From Moniliella sp. 'wahieum' (lineage: Eukaryota), in contig RSEE01000004.1 in NCBI GenBank assembly GCA_003971905.1, positions 620,001 through 684,000 on the forward strand: a stretch of DNA of 64,000 nt, read 5' to 3'. Positions 36,626-52,700 of this stretch are shown piece by piece. Made by a program: the position numbers and the translations under genes. The notes beneath the pieces were generated by a model, which worked only from the letters and a program-made list of their open reading frames with translations, was not told where the DNA came from and did not search any database. How positions within the stretch are numbered: position 1 is the stretch's first letter; each line of letters begins with the position of its first letter.

Positions 36626-38309
36626 TCATAGGCGAGCGGGGGCGAGCGCCTTGTTCAGGTACGGGTACAGGTCCGAGGTGAGGAACTCGGAGGGCTTGGG
36701 CAACCGTACCTGCTCCGACAGGTACTTGCGAGCCAGGTCCACGGCGTTGGGGTCGAGCTTGGTCAGCTTGGCCGCTTCCTCTGCCAAGAGCTGGTCGACA
36801 TAGGCGGGGGTGACCTTGTGTCCCTCGACGGTCGACGCGCCGTGGTACACCCAGGACCAGAGCCCGACCCGGGAAATCTCGGCCGTCGCCGCATCCTCCA
36901 TCATGTAGTTGATCGGCACACACCCATTGCCCTTGACCCAATTGGCGCAGTAGCCCAACAGCGCCGACACGTTGGCCCGCGCCCCGCCCTCGGTAATCTG
37001 CCCGGGCACCGCGGCATTGACCAAGTCCTTGGCGGTCACCGTCACCTCTTCGCGCCGGACAAAGTACTGGTTGGGACGAGCATGTGCTGGTTAAAGATTT
37101 CCAGCGCAATCTTGACCAGCGCCGGGTGGGCGACCCAGGTACCATCGTGGCCCGCCTGCACTTCGCGCAGCTTGTCGGCGCGGACCTTGTTCATGGCCAC
37201 CTCGTTGGCCTGCGGGTTGTCCTTGATGGGGATCTGGGCGGCCATGCCGCCGATCGCAGCGACGCCGCGCTTGTGGCACGTTTGGATCAGCAGGTTGACA
37301 TAGGCCTGCATAAACGGCACCGTCATCGTCACATCGGCACGGTCGGGCAAGAGCTGTTGCTTTTGGAAGCGCTGCCGCTTGATAAACGAAAAAATGTAGT
37401 CCCACCGACCACAGTTGAGTCCCGAACTGTGGTCGCGCAACTCGTAGAGAATCTCATCCATCTGGAACGCCGCTGTGATGGTCTCGATCAGTACCGTACC
37501 GCGAATCGTGCCGCGCGGGATGGCAAGGTAATCTTGCGCCACATTAAACACGTCGTTCCACAGTCGCGCTTCGAGGTGGTGCTCCATCTTGGGCAGGTAA
37601 AAGTACGGGCCATAGCCGGTCCGGACCAGCTCCTTGGCATTGTGGAAAAAGTACAGAGCAAAGTCAAACAGCCCGCCCGACACGGCCGTGCCATCAATCA
37701 CCACATTCGCCTCGTCCAGATGCCAGCCACGGGGGGGACAATCAACGTGGCCGTCTGCCCCGCCGGCTTGAGCTTGTACGCCTTGCCGTTCGGCAGGCTA
37801 AAATCAATCTGGCGAAACACAGCGTCGCGCATGTTGACTTGGCCATCCAAATTGTTGGCCCAGGTGGGCGAGTTGGAATCTTCAAAGTCGGCCATGTACG
37901 TGTACGCGCCCGAGTTGAGCGCATTGATCACCATCTTGCGGTCCACGGGGCCGGTAATCTCCACGCGCCGGTCGCGCAGCCCCGGCGCAGGTGGCGCCGC
38001 ACGCCACGTAGCGTCCTTCCGAATGTACGCCGTCTCGGGCAAAAAGTCCAGTGCCACGCCCGCGTCCAATTGAAGTTGCCGAATCTCGCGCGCCTTGAGC
38101 AACTGGTGCCGGCGTGCATTAAAGTTGCGGTGCAGAACCGCGACAAACTGGAGCGCTTCGGGCGTAAGAATCTCCTTGTGCGCGCCCTCGACGGGCCTAA
38201 CGGTGGGGTGAAGGGCGGGGGTGCGTTAGCTAGGGAACCCATCTGAGCCAAGGGCAAGAAAAGCACCCAATCAAGACGTACCAAGAACACGAACGCCTTC
38301 GAGAGCCAT
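36626..38309 (-). CDS. MLS1: Malate synthase (glyoxylate cycle), peroxisomal
   Basis: [10 protein letters not shown], intron, then [15 protein letters not shown]...[23 protein letters not shown]...MADFEDS...[12 protein letters not shown]...[10 protein letters not shown]...[11 protein letters not shown]. The C-terminal ARL is PTS1-like. About three frameshifts. Confidence 0.97.
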
Positions 38310-39202: not shown

Positions 39203-39538
<336 letters not shown>

Positions 39539-39810
39539 TCAGCAAGGGAAGCACAGAAGGTGCATGCAACGGTGGCTTGTGAGTGGCAACGTACTTGTTG
39601 AGGGAGAGAGAGGGAGAAGTGGGAAGACGAGAGAACGGGTGGAGGGAAAAGGTAGTGAATTGGGACGAGCTGGCCACTATATATAAACCGGATGGCCCCT
39701 TGGAGTTGGGTTGATGATTGACGCGCTGACGCGCGGAGGCTGGTACAGAGTCCTGACTGAGTCACTTGTAGACACAACCACCTGCCCTTGGGCAACGAGC
39801 ACTGCGAACA

Positions 39811-39994
39811 TGTGAACGCAGCAATTGTGAACGTGGAGAGGCATTCGCGACGAGATCCGTCAAGTGAAGTTTGAAAGTTGCTTTCTACGCACACGTTCAC
39901 AAGACCATCGGCGGATGAGGCGCTGCGTTCACAGTTCACAACCTACAGGTGGCATACGTAATCCGTTCACACCGGTGCCCCCGTCGCGTTCACA
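39811..39994. promoter_or_regulatory. Cluster of CGTTCACA motifs in the divergent H4/H3 promoter
   Basis: Six CGTTCACA/TGTGAACG copies (39811, 39826, 39894, 39926, 39964, 39987) plus GTTCACA at 39934. They lie between TATA-like elements at about 39677 and 40138. Regulatory role is inferred. Confidence 0.65.
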
Positions 39995-40222
39995 GCGCTG
40001 GCGTTCCGTCTGGTGGTGATGGATGGACAGGGGAGGGCGGCCAGCGACAAAGGCGCACCCAGCAGTGTCTTACGCTGCCCACCCTCCCTGCGGCTACACT
40101 AGCCCTCGGGTACTCAAGCCTCCGATGCTCTCAGAACTATATAAACTCAGACCCACTCCCGCTCGTCCCTTGACACCATCGCCACACCCTCCTCGCACCC
40201 CTTTTCCTTCTTCTCCTACAAC

Positions 40223-40720
40223 ATGGTGCGTCTGGTCGTCCTTTTCTCCCTCTGCATTGCCCCACCGTTGGGCGGCCCTTCCACTTGTTTCGTCTCCCTC
40301 TGACCCCTTCTCTCTAGGCCCGCACCAAGCAAACCGCCCGCAAGTCTACCGGTGGCAAGGCGCCCCGCAAGCAGCTTGCCACCAAGGCTGCCCAAGTCGG
40401 CGCCCTCGACCGGCGGCGTCAAGAAGCCCCACCGCTACCGCCCTGGTACTGTGGCTCTTCGTGAGATTCGTCGGTACCAGAAGAGCACGGAGCTGCTGAT
40501 CCGCAAGCTGCCGTTCCAGCGTCTCGTGCGTGAGATCTCGCAGGACTGGAAGACGGACCTGCGCTTCCAGTCGTCCGCTGTGATGGCGCTGCAAGAGTCG
40601 GCCGAGGCCTACCTGGTCTCTCTCTTTGAGGACACCAACCTCTGTGCCATTCACGCCAAGCGCGTCACCATCCAGCCTAAGGCATGCCTGGCTCGCCGTC
40701 TGCGTGGCGAGCGCACCTAA
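40223..40720 (+). CDS. HHT1: Histone H3 (intron 40226-40317; small apparent deletions near R26 and D123-Q125)
   Basis: ATG, intron, then [84 protein letters not shown]...[10 protein letters not shown]. Confidence 0.97.
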
Positions 40721-41224
40721 ACGTTGCCCCATGCGGGGACACGTTGTTCCGCTTTTGTATATGTACTACTGTCACTCTATGATTTGGAAGCACCTTGGGC
40801 TTGGCTGCAAATGTGTAGATGGACAGTTTTTGACGCTTGAAGCTGCGAGTATACCCTTCAGATCTTTTCTGGATAAGATCTAAGATATGAAGGGGTAATA
40901 GCAACCCGGTAGTTTGGGTTCAACGTGTTCAACCCACGCTAACGCGTAACATGTACATGTAACAGAGATGCGGCGCTCTCAGATCGCAGCTCTCTTCAAG
41001 CTTGAACTTCAAGCTTCATGTATCATGCATTCAATATTCATGGTTCAAGCCTCAGTACTCGGTACACTTGTCGGCGGCGTGCTTCACACATGGAACCTGG
41101 CACACGCGACGGATCGGCCCATGCGGAGAGAGACCTGTAACCCGGAGCCTGTATGGCATTTTTCTCGCTCCGCCAGTCGTTATCTGCACGTCAGCTATTG
41201 CCGCATAAAAGTAAGCAGCACGCA

Positions 41225-41435
41225 TGTCACAAGCCTAGCTAGCGATGCTGGCGATGGTCGATGGAGATGGCATTCAAGAGCTAAGGAGAGCTAGAGCTAT
41301 GGGCCTTGATAGGCTCCTGGCCTGGAGGCCAGTGGAAACCCGTGGAAGGGTCGGAACTCACTGCCCCGGTGCACTGTGTGGATCGGGCCACGTGTCACTG
41401 AAGGCCGATGGGCTCTAGACCACTGGTGGTCAACA
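41225..41435 (-). repeat. 3' LTR of copia element
   Basis: TGTCACAAGCC...GGTGGTCAACA; matches 46274-46485 except for two small indels. Confidence 0.97.
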
Positions 41436-44400
41436 CCCCCGCTGGCCAGAGGTCTCAGTGGCACGATGGAAGGTTGTAACGTCCTCAAGCTTGAGGCGAG
41501 GCAAGTTGGCCAGGAGTGAGACCTTAGTGGCTGGTTTGGTGAGGATGTCGGCCGGGTTCTCGTTTCCAGCAATGTGCGCGATTTTGACTTCGCCCGAGTC
41601 GACATGCTGGCGTACGTTGTGGTACCGGATGTTCAGCTCACGTAGTTTGCCCGTGCTGCCCACTTTTTCGGCCAAGGCAAGTGCCGCCATGTTGTCGCAG
41701 TACCAGTGTATGGGCTCGTCTGAGGTGATGGCACCGAGCTCCAGTAAGATGTTTTTAACGTAGTTCGCATCAATGAGGCCCTCATATCCCGCCGTATATT
41801 CGGCCGCAGCAGTGTTGGTGACGCTCTTGGGTTGACGCACGCTCCTCCAGGACACTGGAACCCCGTAGACGAAAAGCAGGCATCCCGACGTGGAACGCCA
41901 TTGGTCAGGGTCTCCAGCCAGGTCGGCATCCGTGTATAGCGCGAGAGCGGGTGCGTCAGGCTCGGGTGTTAGTCGGAGACCGTAGCCCTTGGTACCGTAG
42001 AGGTAGCGGAGGAAGTTTGTTGCCGCAGCGCGGTGGGCCTTGGAGGGATCGGCAGTTGCTCGGCTTAGAGCTGAGATGCCGAACAGCGCATCAGGGCGGC
42101 ACATGCGGGCAGCCCACAGCCCAGATCCTACTTTGGCTTGGTAGTCGCGTCTCTCGGGGGCAGTGCGGGCGGTTCGGGGTCGGTGCGCGCGGGGATCATC
42201 TTGCTGGGGTGGGGGAGGCCCATAACCAGGGGTGGCGGAACCTCATGTTTGGCAATGGATTCCTCAATGAATTTTGGCTGGCTAAGGTACAGTTTCCCGT
42301 TTATGGTGTCGTACTGGCAGCCAAGATGGTAGTGTAGGGGGCCGTTTCCCCGCACCTCGATATGGGTGTTGATCTCAGTGAGGAAGGAATCGTAGCGTGC
42401 GTGAGACGTGCAGGCGATGAGAAGATCGTCGGTGTGCACGGCAAGGAGGACCGTGTCGCCTTTACGGGGTCGGATGAACAAGCACGGCTCAGCCAGAGAT
42501 TGTACAAAACCCATGTCTCCGCGGAGCAAGTCACGGATGAATACCGCCCAGTTTGCGCCGGATTGGTGGAGGCCATATAGGCTTTTCCGGAGACGCCAGA
42601 CCTTGCCTTTTTCCTCGGGAAAGAATGGGGGTGGGCGGAGGTACACTTTTTCCGTGAGGGGAGCGTTCAAATAGGCAGAGTGCACATCAGCAGTGAAGAG
42701 GTGGAGGCCGAACTTTCCAGCAAGGGCGATAAGGCTGAGGATGGCAGGAGTGCGCACGGCAGGGGCGAATGTTTGTCCCCATGTGTCAGCATCCTGCTGG
42801 TGGCCCCCGGCAACGAGACGGGCTCGGTAGCGTAGGAAATTTCCGTCCGCGTCCGTTTTGGTGTTGATCGCCACAGACCAATCAGCAGCTGCGCGTCTGG
42901 AGGGGGCGTGACGACTTCGAATGTGCCGTAGCGGGCTAGGGTGTCGATTTCCGTGCGCATCGCCTCCAGCACTGGTTCGAAGGGGGGTGATTGGAGGCCC
43001 TTCATTGTCTTGGGTGCAACAGGTACTCCGTCCTTGGTGAGCTGGATGCGCTCGTGCGCCCTGGCTCGCTAAGGGCGATCATCGCCTTGTATTCAGGCGG
43101 ATGGAGACCGTCGCTGTACGCGGGCAGGGCAGTGTCGGGCAGTGGGAAGCGTAGGCCGATCGCAGGACTACGACTACCGTCAGGGAGGGGAACCGGAGGC
43201 AGCGCGGCAGCGTGTGCGTGGAAGTCACCATCATGAGGGTCGTCCGCTACGGGGAGCTGTGCCCAGTCAAGGTCAAAACGGCGCTGGTGGGTCCGGGGGG
43301 GTACCGTCTGGTGGTGGGGGTGGTTGGATGGGTGTCGTTTTGTCTTGCGATGGTCGCGTCAGTATCAGTGTTGATTCTCGGTGTGTTGGGATTTGCAACT
43401 TCAATTTTGTTCATTTTTTCTTCTCCCTTTTTGGTTTCAGTGTCAGTCATAGTTCTGTCAGGCAGGGGTTGAGCGGGGAAGCGAGATACGTCAGGCGGAA
43501 AGCGGTCGGGGAAAACCTCGTGGTATTGGCGCTGGGTCCACTTGTATGGTTTTGCCCATTGGGATCGGAACGTGCCCATGGACGGGTCGTACACAGCCCA
43601 GCGCCAACCCTTTGTACCTCGACCTGCGTCGTACCCGACGAGCATGGCTTCGACAGCCCGCGGACTGAGCTTATGGTCACGTTGGTCCTGGGCCAGGTGA
43701 AGGTACGCCAAGGATCCGAAGGCGTGCATTGGCAGCGGTGGGGGTGACCCCTTGTACAGCTCAGCCCGAGATTGTGTGCCCTGGCGTGGAGATGTCGGTG
43801 GCATGAGGTTGTGCGTCCAGCACCCTGCCAGCAAGGCATCCTGCCACCAGTTTGATGTCGGGAGGCCCGAGGCGATGATGAGTTGGCGCGCGCGTGTGGT
43901 GATTGCCTGGATGGCTCGCTCGGCCACCCCATTTGATTGACTTTGGCCTGGTATGGTGGTTTCCGTCGTGATACCTTCGGATTCAAGGAACGGACGGAGT
44001 GCGCTGGTGAGCTCGGGGGCATTGTCTGTCTTCAAGATGCGAAGCAGACGGTCCTTTCCGATGCGTTGCTCGGGGTGATGAGTTTTTTCAGCTCCGCCGT
44101 GGCTTGTCCTTTCGTCTTTAGGGGAACAGCGAAGGTGTAACGGCTCCAGTCATCAACCGCGACCAGGGCGTATCCATGTCCCATGCCAGTGATGCGAGGG
44201 AGGTCGACTACGTCGGCGTGCAGTACTTCGAAAGGACGTTCCGAAATGCGGCGGCCGTGGCGCGAAGGGTGGCTGGGCGCTTTGGCCAGAGCTTTTGTGC
44301 AGGTGGGACAATGCCAGAAGGGGCGGATGCGTCGGATTTGGGCAGGGCTGACGCGGAGGCTCGCTCGCGCGTTGGCGGTTAGTGTCGGGAGTAGGTCTAG

Positions 44401-46273
44401 CGCGGCGTGGTTGTACTGTTGGTGAACGTACATGACGTGCTCGATGGTGTTGGCTGCGGTGTGTTGGGTGGCGACGGCAGCTTTGGCCGCGTGTTCGTTT
44501 GTGGGTGTCGGTTTCGGGACGATGTTCAGCTTGTATGAGGAATCCGCGATTTGGTGATATTTGCCATGCTTGTCATTTAACCAGATACCTTTTCGGGGGG
44601 GGCGAACCAGGATGCGTGGCCTGCGTCACTTATTTGCGCTACGCTCGTGAGATTGCTTGCTATGCCGGGGACGTATAGACTGCCGGGTAGGTCTACATGG
44701 ATACATTTGCCGTCGGTACACTTGATACCGATGCTACATGTTCCGCGTCCACTGGCTTTAATATGTTTTCCATCAGCGATTTCGATTGAGCGGTTGCTGG
44801 GCTTGAGGGTTTTGAATACCCTGAGATCCTTCCAGATGCTAGGATCCGCGCCCGAGTCGTGACGAGACTGGATGTCCTGGTTGCCCGCGAGTTCCTATTT
44901 GTCAGATAGGGCAAGGTCCACAGACAGGGTCTCCCCTTCGGAGACGTCGTCTTCGGTGGCAATGTGCGCTCGCGCGGAGCTGTTGGGTGCCATTTGTTGT
45001 TCGAAGGAACCCCGGTGTGGCCGGACGGCTTTCTCGCAAGAGCACCCCCGCTACGGGGAGATGCACCGGCAGGAGGACCCCCGCTATGCTGCTGGGATCC
45101 CGCGCTGTCGTGTTTGCCAGCGCCCGAGTTGGCGGTCCGGGGGTGACGGCCCCGGTACGGAATTCTGTACTCTGGGTCCGCTGGGATTCTCTCCACGTCT
45201 TGCATTGTCTCCGCCAGAGTCATGTGCTCTAGGCGGCGACGGTCACCAGGGTCGCGGAGGGCCCCGACGAGGATACGGCGGAATTGCTCGTCCGACATCG
45301 GTGTGGTTGCGCTGATCCGGTTGCGGAGCGTCCCCATTTCAGATAGGAACTCGCTCCCGCTGCGCCGGTTTTGGTAGCAGTGGTGAAAGCGACTGGACAA
45401 TTCATGATACGTCTTGCAGTCGACCGTACCGTATTTGTTTCGCAGGGCACGGAGCAAGTCAGCTGACGTGTCAACGTTGTCCTGTGCAATAATGGCAGAT
45501 TGAACGTCGTTCGGGAGGTGGGACCACAGAAGGTTCTGGAGGCGTAGATCGAGGGACGAGTCGTAGTGTGGTGACGATGGACCGGAGCGAACGATGTCCT
45601 TCGCGGCGGGTGGATGCGGTCCAGGATGTTGAGGATGGAGGGCTCCCAGAGCACATATTCGGTGGGGTCGCGGAAGGCGTCCTTGCGCGTCGCGTTGGTA
45701 CGCTCGATCTCTTTTGACGCGCGTTTCTCAGCGTGGCGAAGCTCGGCCATGTCCTCACTCGCGGATGCAAGGGCCTCACGGGTGTTTTGCGGCTTCGTGA
45801 ATTCAACGGCCAATACATATTTCTCCAACGCGAGGGTGAGCGTGTAGATCCAATTTTCCTTTCCGCCCGGTGTTTTCTTGCTCTTCGGTCCATACGCCGC
45901 CGTGTGTGCATCCGTAGCGAACGAGCGGCATGTGGAGCGGAGATTGTCAGCGCTGGTGGGCTTGAACGCGCGGGTGCTTGCGAGGAGGTTGTCTCTGACG
46001 TCGGTGAGGGCCTGTTGCCAGGTCGGGTCGGAGACAGGGGTGGTGGTCGGTTCGTCGATGTCCTGCGCCTCTTCGATGACAGAGACTTCGGGAGGAGGGG
46101 TGTTTTCTTCCAGTTCGGGGGGCATGGTGGCTGATTTTTCCTTTGTTTTTTTTTTGAATTGGTTGGTGTGTGGTGCCGATGGTGGCGTTGGGGTGGTGGT
46201 GGTGACGGTGGGCGCCGATGGTGGTGCTGAGTATTGATCCTTTGCGCCAGTGGGGTGCTTCAGATTGTAGCTC

Positions 46274-46485
46274 TGTCACAGCCTAGCTAGCGATGCTGGC
46301 GATGGTCGATGGAGATGGCATTCAAGAGCTAAGGAGAGCTAGAGCTATGGGCCTTGATAGGCTCCTGGCCTGGAGGCCAGTGGAAACCCGTGGAAGGGTC
46401 GGAACTCACTGCCCCGGTGCACTGTGTGGATCGGGCCACGTGTCACTGAAGGCCGATGGGCTCTCTAGACCACTGGTGGTCAACA
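46274..46485 (-). repeat. 5' LTR of copia element
   Basis: TGTCACAGCC...GGTGGTCAACA followed by TSD ACGCA. Confidence 0.97.
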
Positions 46486-47099
46486 ACGCATCAGGCATGG
46501 CAAACGTTGAGCACGACCAACTGAGATTTTGGGCACGACTGTATGAACACTCCCGCAGCGGCCATAGGCCGTATTCCTTACCAGTCGGCCGGCACAGCTG
46601 GTAACTAGGTAACTCCAAGCCGTGTTCATCAATCATCGCGTCAGACTTCTCAGGCTTCACGCGCACGCTTCACGTGTCACATGTCACGACGTGAGGCAAA
46701 CGCGTAATAGTACCACGCGCGCGACGCGAACGATGCAAGAATGAAATATTGCCCAAAACCTCATACGCAACCGTGCAAATGGTTCGGGTGGGGTCAGCTG
46801 GCCCAAACACCGCCACGTCTCAATTCTCAATTCCCTGCCCTTCTATCAGAAGACCGCGAAAGCGCCACCAGCACCCATAGACGACCCTTACGTGGGTATC
46901 TACTGCTCATGCCAACGGTACCCATAACAGCACTAGTTACCTAGTTACCCAAAGACGAGACGAGGCCCGGTTCCGATTAGCCACCATCCGGAGAATTTAC
47001 ACACTAATAACATAGAGTTCATGAAGCATGTGTTCGAGGTGCTAGAGTACAAAAAGTGCTGGAGGATATCGCCAGAGGAAACGGATCCAAATGAGACGC

Positions 47100-47588
47100 T
47101 TAGACCTCCTGCGATGCCTTCTTGCTCTTGCCCGACTTGGCGGGCAACAGCTCGGGGTTGATGTGGGGAAGAACACCACCCTGGGAGATGGTAACACCAC
47201 CCAGAAGCTTGTTGAGCTCCTCGTCGTTGCGGATGGCCAGCTGGAGGTGACGAGGCACGATCTGAAGTCACGAGGCCTGGTCAGCAAATGGACATGGAAG
47301 AAAGCACAACAGGCACAAGAAGGAAATACGCACACGACTCTTCTTGTTGTCACGCGCGGCGTTGCCAGCCAACTCGAGGATTTCGGCAGTCAAATACTCG
47401 AGCACGGCAGCCAAGTAGACGGGCGCACCAGCACCGACACGCTGGGCATAGTTGCCCTTGCGAAGCAGACGGTGGATACGGCCCACAGGGAACTGCAGGC
47501 CAGCCTTGGCCGAACGCGAGGTCGCCTTGGAGCCAGCCGCGCCACCGGCCTTGCCACCCGACTTGCCACCAGACTTGCCGCCAGACAT
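47100..47588 (-). CDS. HTA1: Histone H2A (one intron; C-terminal SQEV, H2A.X-type motif)
   Basis: MSGGKSGGK...[42 protein letters not shown]...NKKSR, intron, [21 protein letters not shown]...KASQEV. Confidence 0.98.
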
Positions 47589-48063
47589 AGTTGAAGAGAA
47601 AGTTGTTGAGGAGAGGTGGGGGGTGAGAAGGTTGGGAAGAGAGGTGGGGGTGAACCCGATGAGAGCCCTTGGGACTGACGGTTTTATACTGGTTGCGCGA
47701 ATGGTAGGATGAGACACCAACAACCTCGCTGGTGACTGGTGACTGGACCCGTGACTGGCAGGTGGCAGTGCGCAGAGCGGAGGATGCTACAGGTCGTACC
47801 CGTTATCCTGCCTTGCCCGGCCGAGGGCACGCAGGCCTACCGGCTTACCACCAAGGCCACCCTCCGTCGCTGGTCGCAGCCTGACTGGCGCAGCGGCGCT
47901 GCCGGCTTGGAGGAGTGGAACGAAGGGGCCGTGGCCAGAGACTGCGGTGGTGCGGAGACACTTGAAGTTTTGGTGCGCACTAATATTACTCGCAACGTGA
48001 CGCGTGAAGGTTGAAGTACAACTTATGTGGACGTGTCTCCAGCCACGCTGCGGCAACACACCG

Positions 48064-48223
48064 CGTTCACACGTTCACATCCGCAGGCGGCGCTCTGCCC
48101 CAAACGCGTCGCTTGGTGAATCTGTCTCACGCCTCTGTCTGGCGTGTCGCGTTGGAGGGCATTCGACTGGGTAGGCCGTCGCGTTCTGCAACGCTGGCAT
48201 CGACGCGCGTTCACATGTTCACA
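48064..48223. promoter_or_regulatory. CGTTCACA motif cluster in the divergent H2A/H2B promoter
   Basis: CGTTCACA at 48064, 48072 and 48208 and GTTCACA at 48217; TATAAAA at about 48282. Regulatory role is inferred. Confidence 0.65.
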
Positions 48224-48377
48224 TCACATGGCCTCCTCAGTGTCTGTTGTGCCAGATCAGCTACCTCTGCCTCAGCTTTTGTATAAAACCTTCACCCGGT
48301 GCGCCTCGTGCTCTGTGCAACACACCCACCCTTCCCTCGTCCTTGTCAAGCCCACCTCGTCCTCACTTCGTTTCACT

Positions 48378-48884
<507 letters not shown>

Positions 48885-49723: not shown

Positions 49724-52700
49724 ATGTCGGGCAACGTCAAAGTCGTTGCGCGCTTCCGCCCTCCCAACGCGCTCGAGTTGCGCGAGGGCGGCGACATTGT
49801 CGTCGACTTTAGCGCAGTCAATCCCACTGACCCTGGCGAACACACGATCAAGCTCCTTGGCTCCACCAACTCGGACGCGCTCAATGGCTTCACCTTTGAC
49901 CGCATCTTCCCCATGGGCACCCCCAGCGCGACGTTTTCGAGTTTGGGATTCGCGACACGGTAGACGGTATGCCACCCTCTTCCTTTTCTCGTGGCGCTTG
50001 CATGTACCACCCTGCTGACTCTATTCGTCAGATGTGGTCAACGGCTACAATGGCACCATCTTTGCCTATGGCCAAACGGGCTCGGGTAAGACGTTTACCA
50101 TGATGGGCTCGGACATTGACGACGAAAACACCAAGGGTATTATCCACGCATTACCGAGCAAATCTTTGAGTCGATCATGGTCTCGCCGCCAAATCTGGAA
50201 TACTTTGTCAAGGTGAGCTACATGGAAATCTACATGGAAAAGATCCGCGACCTGCTGCAACCACAGAACGACAATCTTCAAATCCACGAGGACAAGGCCC
50301 GCGGTGTCTATGTCAAGGGATTGACCGACGTTTATGTTGGCTCAACGGGTGAAGTATACGAGATTATGCGGCAGGGAAGCTCGGCCCGGGTCGTGTCCTA
50401 CACCAACATGAACGCCGAGTCCTCCCGCTCCCATTCGATTTTCGTCATCAGCATTCAGCAGCGCAACACCGAGACAGGCAGCTCCAAGACCGGCAATTTG
50501 TATCTCGTCGACCTGGCTGGTAGCGAAAAGGTGGGCAAGACGGGCGCCAGTGGCCAGACGCTGGAAGAAGCCAAGAAGATCAACAAGAGTTTAAGTGCGC
50601 TCGGCATGGTGATCAATGCCTTGACCGACGGCAAATCGGGGCACATCCCTTACCGTGATTCCAAACTGACCCGCATCCTGCAAGAGTCCCTGGGTGGTAA
50701 CTCACGCACGACTCTGATTGTCAACGCTTCCCCCTGCTCCTTCAACCAAGAGGAGACCTTGTCGACGCTTCGGTTTGGTGTGCGTGCCAAGAACATCAAG
50801 AACAAGGCGCGTGTCAATGCAGAAATGTCGCCCGCCGAGCTGCGGCAGGCCCTCAAGAAGACCAAGGCCGAGGGCGGACCGGTACAAGGCCTATATTGCG
50901 GCTCTCGAGGCCGAGATCAAGATCTGGCGTGCCGGGGGCAAGGTCGCCGAGGCCGACCGGGCCGACGCAACCAAGCTGGGTACCTCCGCGCCTGGTCACC
51001 AGGCCACGGGAAGCGCCGCCTCCACGGGCACCAGCAAATTGTCTGCACCGAGCAGCAAAGACTCGCCGCGTCCCACCAGCCCAGCAGTGGAAGGGCTCAA
51101 AGAGCTTACTTCCCGCCCCGATACGCCTACGGTCGTTGGTCTTGACAAGGATGAGCGCGACGAATTCTTGCGTCGGGAGAACGAGTTGGCGGACCAGGTG
51201 ACGGAAAAGGAGGCAGCGCTCAAGCTTGCTCAAAACCATCTCGCCGAGGTCCAATCCGAGCTTGCCTTCCTCCGTGAACAGGAAGAGACGTTCAACAAGG
51301 AAAACAAGGCGTTGACGACAGAGATGAACGAGGTCAAGCTCGAACTGGAGCGGATCCGGTACGACAGCAAGGACTCGACGATCATGATGGACATGCTCAA
51401 GGAGCAAAATGCCGAGTTGACCGTCGAAGTGGAGGAGCTGAAGAAGAACTTGGCTGCCGAAACGACGCAAAAGACGGCCAAGGATGCAGCCCAAGAAGAG
51501 CGCAAGGAACGCAAAAAGCAGAAAAGATGGCCAAGATGTTGGCTGACTTTAGCTCGGGCATCCTTACCGAGCGCGAGGAGCAGATTCGCGCCACCCTGCT
51601 CAAGCTTGAAACGACCGCTGGCGCGCTGAGCAAGGAGGACATGGGCATGGTCCGGGAGCAGCTGCTCGAGTCGCAGACGCTGGTGCGGGAGCAGCAGGAA
51701 CTGTTGACGCAAGCGCAAGAAGAGAACGATTTGCTGCTCCGGCGTGAGGAGACCGAGGTGCGCCTGATGGAGCTCGAGACGGAATACGAAGAGTTGATTC
51801 AGCGCCAAGTGCGTGAGGCGCAAGCTACGCACCAAGGCGGCGATGTGGAGGCTTTGGTGGAGGATCTCAAATCCAAGCTCGAGGTGCAGTATGCCAACAA
51901 GCGCCAAGCGCAAGCCGATGCGTTACCGACTTGCAACACCAAGTCGACGTTAAAGCCAAGGAGGTTGCCTCTTTGCGTGCGGCCAACGAAGAGCTGAAGA
52001 ATAACAACGAGGAGCTGAAGCGTGCGTTTGCCATCACAGCGGCCGGTGTCGAGGGCGGCAAGAACCTCGCCGAGTCGGCCCGCGAAATGGAGCGGGTGCG
52101 CAAGACGATGGCCAACCAACTGGCCGAGTTTGACCTGATGAAGAAGAACTTGATGCGCGATCTGCAAAACCGATGCGAAAAGGTCGTGGAACTGGAACTG
52201 TCACTGGATGAGTCCAAGGAACAGTACAACAATGTTTTGCGTTCCAGCAATGCCCGCACCCAGCAAAAGAAGATGGCGTTCCTCGAGCGCCAACTGGAGA
52301 ACTGGTCGATGCACAACAACAGTTGGTTGCCCAAAATGCGGCGCTCAAGACCGAGGTGTCGGTGGCCGAACGCAAGTTGGTCGCACGGCAAGAACACATT
52401 CGTGCACTCGAAGCGTCGCTCACCGAGTCGCAACATAAGCTCGCCGCGCAGAATCGGAGGTACGAGCAACAGATGGAGGCGGTGCGGACCAAGCTGGCGC
52501 ATGCGCGCGAAGCACGCGCTTTGGCCCCGGCCAATGCCTACGGGCGGATCGCCAAGCTGCCGGCGGTGGCGGCGCTCCTCTGCCGGTTCAACAGCCTGGC
52601 GCGCCCGTCGCCGTACCGCGCGGCGCGGCAATCACCCCGGCCCAAGCGCAAAGCCACCAACGTACCGCCTCTACCCTCGCCTCGCCTCCCTACGGCGAGC

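Follow-up and report, generated by a model that had tools for sequence, protein, structure and literature searches.

The window analysed here is the whole 64,000-nucleotide (64 kb) stretch of contig RSEE01000004.1 from Moniliella sp. 'wahieum' (positions 620,001 to 684,000, forward strand). It carries the four core histone genes as two divergent pairs, and this report deals with the 8-mer CGTTCACA, which is repeated in the intergenic regions of both pairs. Translation confirmed the flanking genes: H4 on the minus and H3 on the plus strand around 39515-40222, and H2A on the minus and H2B on the plus strand around 47589-48377. All four genes have a TATA box, and these boxes account for four of the seven occurrences of TATAAA in the window. 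The two intergenic regions together make up about 1.5 kb (2.3% of the window). All coordinates are given as positions in the window.

Pattern search on both strands yielded nine exact copies of CGTTCACA, all of them inside the two histone intergenic regions. The H4/H3 region holds six (minus strand: 39811 and 39826; plus strand: 39894, 39926, 39964 and 39987), the H2A/H2B region holds three, all on the plus strand (48064, 48072 and 48208), and the remaining 62.5 kb hold none. The initial annotation had given exactly these six and three positions, had noticed no copies elsewhere and had claimed one additional GTTCACA for each promoter; the search reproduced all of this and located the additional copies at 39934 and 48217, where they form the second halves of tandem dimers. 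In total, GTTCACA is found 12 times, with 11 copies in the two histone intergenic regions (seven and four) and a lone outsider at 1216. This total is ordinary, as 12 of 100 shuffled windows also reach 12, and the peculiarity of GTTCACA lies in its placement, with 11 of 12 copies within 1.5 kb. Within the window, the same short word is over-represented in both divergent core histone promoters, which serve all four genes, and not in neighbouring promoters.

Such a word could also be recognised by a factor of the Reb1/Abf1 type, with a general role in promoter organisation or as a boundary and no special relation to histone genes. By chance, about two single copies are expected per 64 kb and hence many in the genome, some of which could function at other promoters. 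The other promoters in the window, however, are devoid of the 8-mer, which was found near none of the at least eight neighbouring genes recognisable by Pfam, and the four to seven sites per promoter seen here exceed the one or two through which general factors usually act. We consider a general factor of this kind highly improbable.

The clustering was compared with several chance expectations. Shuffling of the whole window (n = 100) gave an expected number of 2.30 copies of CGTTCACA (standard deviation 1.40, maximum 6), and none of the 100 shuffles attained the nine observed. Also, blind scans for k-mers common to both intergenic regions returned GTTCACA as top 7-mer (7 + 4 copies vs one in the other 62.5 kb) and CGTTCACA as first-ranking 8-mer (6 + 3 vs none elsewhere in the window). 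As a control per region, each intergenic region was shuffled separately 2000 times with preservation of its dinucleotides. Thereby, CGTTCACA appeared on average 0.03 times and at most once in shuffled H4/H3 regions, where six are observed, and on average 0.05 times and at most twice in shuffled H2A/H2B regions, where three are observed. When any 8-mer was allowed to count, the most frequent one in shuffled H4/H3 regions did not exceed five copies and stayed under the observed six. In shuffled H2A/H2B regions some 8-mer reached eight copies, above the observed three. In a blind search the H2A/H2B count would thus not be significant, and it gains its weight solely from repeating the word already identified in H4/H3. 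A chance origin of the motif clustering is excluded for practical purposes.

The motif is sharply defined. One-mismatch variants of CGTTCACA are not enriched, since only three of the 38 in the window lie in the histone promoters and two of these three are the second halves of dimers. All eight positions are thus held, as expected of a word recognised by a protein and not of drifting repeats. The preceding base is mostly G or A, which extends the word to RCGTTCACA. Repeats without regulatory role, arising by slippage, by decay of a microsatellite, or by copying between the promoters through gene conversion or a mobile element, were considered as an alternative: two modules consist of literal 8 bp × 2 tandem repeats, and a long terminal repeat (LTR) retrotransposon sits between the two histone pairs. 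The copies are, however, dispersed over both strands, tandem units never exceed two, and the two promoters that contain the identical word are non-homologous and separated by 8 kb. Moreover, the flanks of the copies are unrelated and no long stretch of homology links the two promoters outside the motif modules, so that the copies do not derive from one duplicated segment. Pattern search found no CGTTCACA inside the retrotransposon or its LTRs, and the one-mismatch variants to be expected as decay products are not enriched. An origin as non-regulatory repeats is therefore very unlikely.

The copies are arranged in four head-to-tail modules of 15-16 bp, two per promoter, to which four single sites are added in the H4/H3 region (Table 1). 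Modules 3 and 4 including flanks are identical in 19 of 20 positions and lie 144 bp apart, with module 3 upstream. For module 2, the step of 7 bp may really be 8 bp, the missing base being a deletion in the assembly. The orientation of the sites is ordered. In the H4/H3 region, the two left sites are directed at H4 and the five right sites at H3, and in the H2A/H2B region the exact sites are directed at H2B and the variant at 48026 at H2A. All motif sites are located between the paired TATA boxes. The H4/H3 cluster is central, with distances of 116-307 bp to the TATA box of H4 and of 144-335 bp to that of H3. The H2A/H2B sites precede the TATA box of H2B by 59-218 bp and are over 330 bp away from that of H2A.

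Table 1. Histone genes, TATA boxes and motif sites of the two divergent histone loci (positions in the window).
Feature	Position	Strand	Remarks
Histone H4 gene	39203..39514	-	Intronless, intact, 103 aa plus stop; translation, start and stop codons checked
TATA box, H4 side, TATATAAA	39680..39687		Near-palindromic core; ~165 bp before H4 ATG
Tandem module 1	39803..39818	-	Exact CGTTCACA at 39811-39818, then degenerate second half, head-to-tail; directed at H4; 14/14 match to module 4
Single CGTTCACA	39826..39833	-	Directed at H4; pattern search
Shared second block TGGAG(A)GGCATTCG, first copy	39834..39847	+	Candidate second element
Single CGTTCACA	39894..39901	+	Directed at H3; pattern search
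Tandem module 2	39926..39940	+	CGTTCACA directly followed by GTTCACA, 7 bp step
Single CGTTCACA	39964..39971	+	Directed at H3; pattern search
CGTTCACA (39987-39994) in longer block	39981..40002	+	Block recurs in degenerate form at 48176-48198, 20/23 aligned columns identical
TATA box of H3	40138..40145	+	~80 bp before ATG
Histone H3 gene	40223..40720	+	Intron right after ATG; assembled frame broken near 40390; C-terminus one residue short
Histone H2A gene	47100..47588	-	Two exons, frame intact; translation
TATA box of H2A	47683..47688	-	~95 bp before ATG
One-mismatch copy CGTCCACA	48026..48033	-	Sole site directed at H2A
Tandem module 3	48064..48079	+	Two exact CGTTCACA head to tail, 8 bp step; directed at H2B
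Shared second block TGGAGGGCATTCG, second copy	48153..48165	+	Promoter-to-promoter comparison
Degenerate copy CGTTCTGCA (48182-48190)	48176..48198	+	Flanks as at 39981-40002
Tandem module 4	48208..48223	+	CGTTCACA then TGTTCACA, 8 bp step; directed at H2B
TATA box of H2B	48282..48287	+	~95 bp before ATG
Histone H2B gene	48378..48884	+	One intron; assembled frame broken near 48505

Comparison of the two promoters with each other revealed a further shared block, TGGAG(A)GGCATTCG, whose 8 bp core GGCATTCG is limited in the window to two copies, one per histone promoter. With two copies only, this block is at best weakly indicated as a possible second cis-element. In addition, an AP-1/Gcn4-type palindrome, TGAGTCA, which is present at only two places in the window, is located in the H4/H3 promoter towards H4 (39755-39765).

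Regarding the host lineage, proteins of Tilletiaria, Parajaminaea, Pseudozyma flocculosa, Tilletia and Ustilago match a kinesin-1 fragment with 84-88% identity, which assigns the window to a member of Ustilaginomycotina. The reading frame of this kinesin gene (49724-52556) shifts at abutting coordinates no fewer than four times over 2.9 kb. Frame breaks were also found in H3 (once or twice; 40380-40400 and 40680-40700) and in H2B (once; 48495-48510), and coding sequence shows roughly one indel per 600 bp. This pattern is that of an unpolished long-read assembly and not of pseudogenes; accordingly, the frame breaks of H3 and H2B and the shortened C-terminus of H3 are probably assembly indels and not signs of gene decay. 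Such indels leave the exact copies of the motif untouched.

Between the H4-H3 and the H2A-H2B pair lies the retrotransposon mentioned above, an element of the Ty1/copia type on the minus strand (41232-46496) with RVT_2 and retroviral SH3-like domains. Its LTRs (41232-41416 and 46280-46464) are 100% identical over 185 nt, which makes it a recent insertion that splits a four-gene core histone cluster. On the other side, a fragment of a malate synthase gene (37042-37704, minus strand; E 2e-105) lies about 1.5 kb past the 3' end of H4 and is free of the motif. Further genes of the window recognised by Pfam encode an LRR protein, FAM210, DUF202, an RRM protein, kinesin-1 and Msb1/RhoGAP, and the motif is near none of them.

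Taken together, we favour, with reasonable though not strong confidence, the interpretation that RCGTTCACA is the predicted site of a sequence-specific factor which co-regulates the core histone genes, most likely as an activating, replication-coupled upstream activating sequence (UAS) to which the factor would bind as a cooperative head-to-tail dimer. The element would act from the middle of both divergent promoters, a placement likewise described for the histone UAS elements of yeast (PMC5706932). The working unit would probably be the 15-16 bp head-to-tail dimer CGTTCACA-Y-GTTCACA, represented by the two modules of each promoter and supplemented by the single sites of H4/H3. Since chance alone would place a lone 8-mer at hundreds of positions in a fungal genome, clustering and cooperative binding would have to provide the selectivity for histone genes. 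A cooperative binder would be a dimeric or oligomeric factor, comparable to Spt10 on the paired UAS elements of budding yeast, and as a UAS the motif would provide coordinated, replication-coupled expression. The sequence itself shows the repetition, the exclusivity within the window, the sharp definition, the position and the orientation of the sites; recognition by a protein, activation and coupling to the cell cycle are inferred from it. The initial annotation had proposed CGTTCACA as the histone cis-element equivalent of this lineage. That proposal is partly supported by the restriction to two promoters in the window, the sharp definition, the position between the TATA boxes, the oriented dimers and the fact that no described element is enriched; its basis is a single window of 64 kb from one genome.

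The same anatomy, i.e. a histone-specific, central and repeated site, would equally fit a negative element that recruits a repressor or a HIR-type, chaperone-linked complex and keeps the histone genes silent except in S phase, similar to the NEG/CCR region of budding yeast. This region, too, is central in the divergent histone promoters, and no factor is known to recognise it (PMC5706932). In yeast, however, it is the activating UAS that is present in many copies (four copies of 16 bp per promoter), in contrast to NEG, which is a single region of 54 bp and absent from one locus (PMC5706932). With seven and four copies of the only strongly shared element, an activator is the simpler reading, and a repressor site appears unlikely to us, even if the sequence itself does not decide the sign.

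Several points weigh against a replication-coupled UAS as proposed here. The choice of an activating over a repressing sign is its least secure part, as it is drawn purely by analogy. The H2A/H2B promoter has fewer sites and all of them are near H2B, which makes control of H2A from them less obvious. Due to the assembly indels, the exact spacings of 7 or 8 bp are uncertain. The exclusivity of CGTTCACA to core histone promoters holds for 64 kb of one genome. Finally, in 178 histone loci of other eukaryotes, a set containing no close relatives and including the best 80 of 426 metagenome loci, GTTCACA does not exceed two copies per 200 bp, compared with seven here.

These loci were collected by three scans. 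Metagenomes were scanned with exon 1 of H2A, which gave 426 confirmed loci, those listed reaching at most 84% identity and holding no more than two GTTCACA each, and H4 was used to scan contigs of prokaryote genomes (79 loci, all eukaryotic contaminants of metagenome-assembled genomes, MAGs) and viral contigs (19 loci). The closest loci retrieved, 84% identical for H2A (among the matches listed) and 95% identical for H4, are all without the cluster. Judged by these loci, the element is no general trait of histone genes in eukaryotes or fungi. The 79 loci in MAGs labelled as bacterial or archaeal (L081-L159) encode eukaryotic H4 with 61-95% identity, many of them in contigs with tandem histone repeats, which indicates that eukaryotic, probably host, DNA was binned into these genomes. 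Also, the 16 bp module was searched in 2.9 million viral contigs, resulting in 39 isolated matches, none of which is beside a histone gene. Ten of these 39 contigs (L160, L164, L169, L173, L175, L176, L180, L190, L191 and L194) carry 3-9 copies of GTTCACA in 200 bp; they are phage-like and unrelated to histones.

Among the known histone elements, the AACCCT box of S. pombe is a 17 bp element served by the GATA factor Ams2 together with Teb1; it combines AACCCT/TTAGGG with GATA-like words and is present as one box per promoter. In our window, AACCCT occurs 24 times, TTAGGG/CCCTAA 11 times and GATA words 27 times, and none of these is found in either histone promoter. The AACCCT box with Ams2 represents an independent solution to the same task, based on a single box where a cluster of repeats is found here. 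The MBF/SBF boxes (ACGCGT, CRCGAAA) are control elements of the G1/S transition that contribute at yeast histone promoters. They were ruled out as the shared element, as ACGCGT is confined to H2A/H2B among the two regions (48000 and 48104) and is common in this GC-rich window, with 30 copies. The E2F word TTTSSCGC and CGCGAAA are absent from both histone promoters. Sites of forkhead, CSL, Myb and T-box factors, nuclear-receptor half-sites, Ste12 and TEA/ATTS were considered and dropped, as their match appears poor. A scan for bacterial promoters and terminators, of no relevance in a eukaryote, was negative.

In the fast-evolving Hanseniaspora lineage, the histone UAS was replaced wholesale by two to three Mcm1-type (CArG) sites per control region (PMC10917516). 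The locus studied here differs from this mode, since CC(A/T)6GG occurs four times in the window and in neither of the two histone promoters. An arrangement reminiscent of the Hanseniaspora Mcm1 mode was encountered on metagenome contig L001 (1-400), which encodes an intronless fungal H2A with 84% identity to that of the window: five CArG/Mcm1-like boxes, CCAAAA(A)TTTGG plus one variant, are located within about 130 bp upstream of the TATA box of this H2A, followed by ACGCGT. The H4-H3 promoters of Aspergillus contain putative sites of the Spt10 matrix in oppositely oriented pairs, together with CCAAT/HAP sites (PMC6900853). Oppositely oriented sites towards each promoter end are a common trait of these promoters and ours. 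Unlike in Aspergillus, there are no matches to the Spt10 consensus in the clusters, and of 93 CCAAT words in the window only one is found in H4/H3 (39659, in the H4 leader downstream of the H4 TATA box) and none in H2A/H2B.

A further resemblance is to the UAS recognised by Spt10 (with Spt21) in S. cerevisiae and other Ascomycota. In the divergent histone promoters of S. cerevisiae, four 16 bp copies of the UAS are located mid-promoter and restricted to the core histone genes, and Spt10 requires pairs of them (PMC5706932, PMC5128866). Here, too, a short element is present in several copies in the centre of both divergent promoters and forms pairs of about 16 bp, with seven and four GTTCACA between the TATA boxes and four tandem modules. 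To a certain extent the likeness reaches the half-sites, since GTTC and TTCAC, both included in our word, resemble the two halves of the Spt10 consensus [G/A]TTCCN6TTCNC (PMC1807970). One might therefore regard the motif as a diverged UAS of the Spt10 type that belongs to the known family, with an Spt10 orthologue of basidiomycetes (GNAT domain and H2C2 zinc finger) as its binder instead of a new factor, all the more as the copies are paired and central, the putative Spt10 sites of Aspergillus are also paired and of opposite orientation (PMC6900853), and homologues of Spt10 are described beyond the yeasts in Aspergillus and Beauveria (PMC6900853; PMC8619123). The consensus itself, however, is not enriched, with 23 matches at up to one mismatch in the window vs 24.5 expected. 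None of these falls into the motif clusters, and the sole match in the histone intergenic regions (39621-39636, one mismatch) is in the H4 leader. Furthermore, the unit here is a head-to-tail direct repeat in which TTC follows TTC after 7-8 bp, instead of 10 bp in the Spt10 site, and a survey of 2006 gave the distribution of Spt10p as Ascomycota (PMC1794435, Table 2). We consider a diverged Spt10 site quite unlikely, and what the central pairs share with the Spt10 UAS is their layout only.

As no described histone element is enriched in either promoter, something else must do the job. A literature search, with subscription journals and supplements outside its scope, found no account of CGTTCACA nor of a histone cis-element or regulator in basidiomycetes, in line with the initial annotation, which knew of no description of the element. 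Returning to the proposed UAS, we tentatively suggest, with somewhat more doubt than belief, that it might be a further independent solution to the control of fungal core histone genes, in which a master regulator of Ustilaginomycotina unrelated to Spt10, Ams2/Teb1 and Mcm1 would bind RCGTTCACA as head-to-tail dimers. If so, this regulator could be identified directly with the 16 bp module as bait. More generally, a word so sharply defined and highly repeated can serve as bait for DNA-affinity purification of a basidiomycete histone regulator, as a marker with which to follow regulatory turnover across Ustilaginomycotina, and as a compact component in the construction of bidirectional expression cassettes. 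Rather than introducing a new principle, the finding extends a known one, that of the lineage-specific histone promoter element. Expression of core histone genes coupled to S phase is universal, but its wiring differs in each of the lineages studied, as illustrated by Spt10, Ams2/Teb1, Mcm1 in Hanseniaspora and Oct-1/HiNF-P/NPAT in animals (PMC1794435, PMC10917516, PMC5706932). Histone cis-regulation turns over between lineages (PMC1794435; PMC10917516), and the RCGTTCACA clusters would add a case from Ustilaginomycotina to this series.

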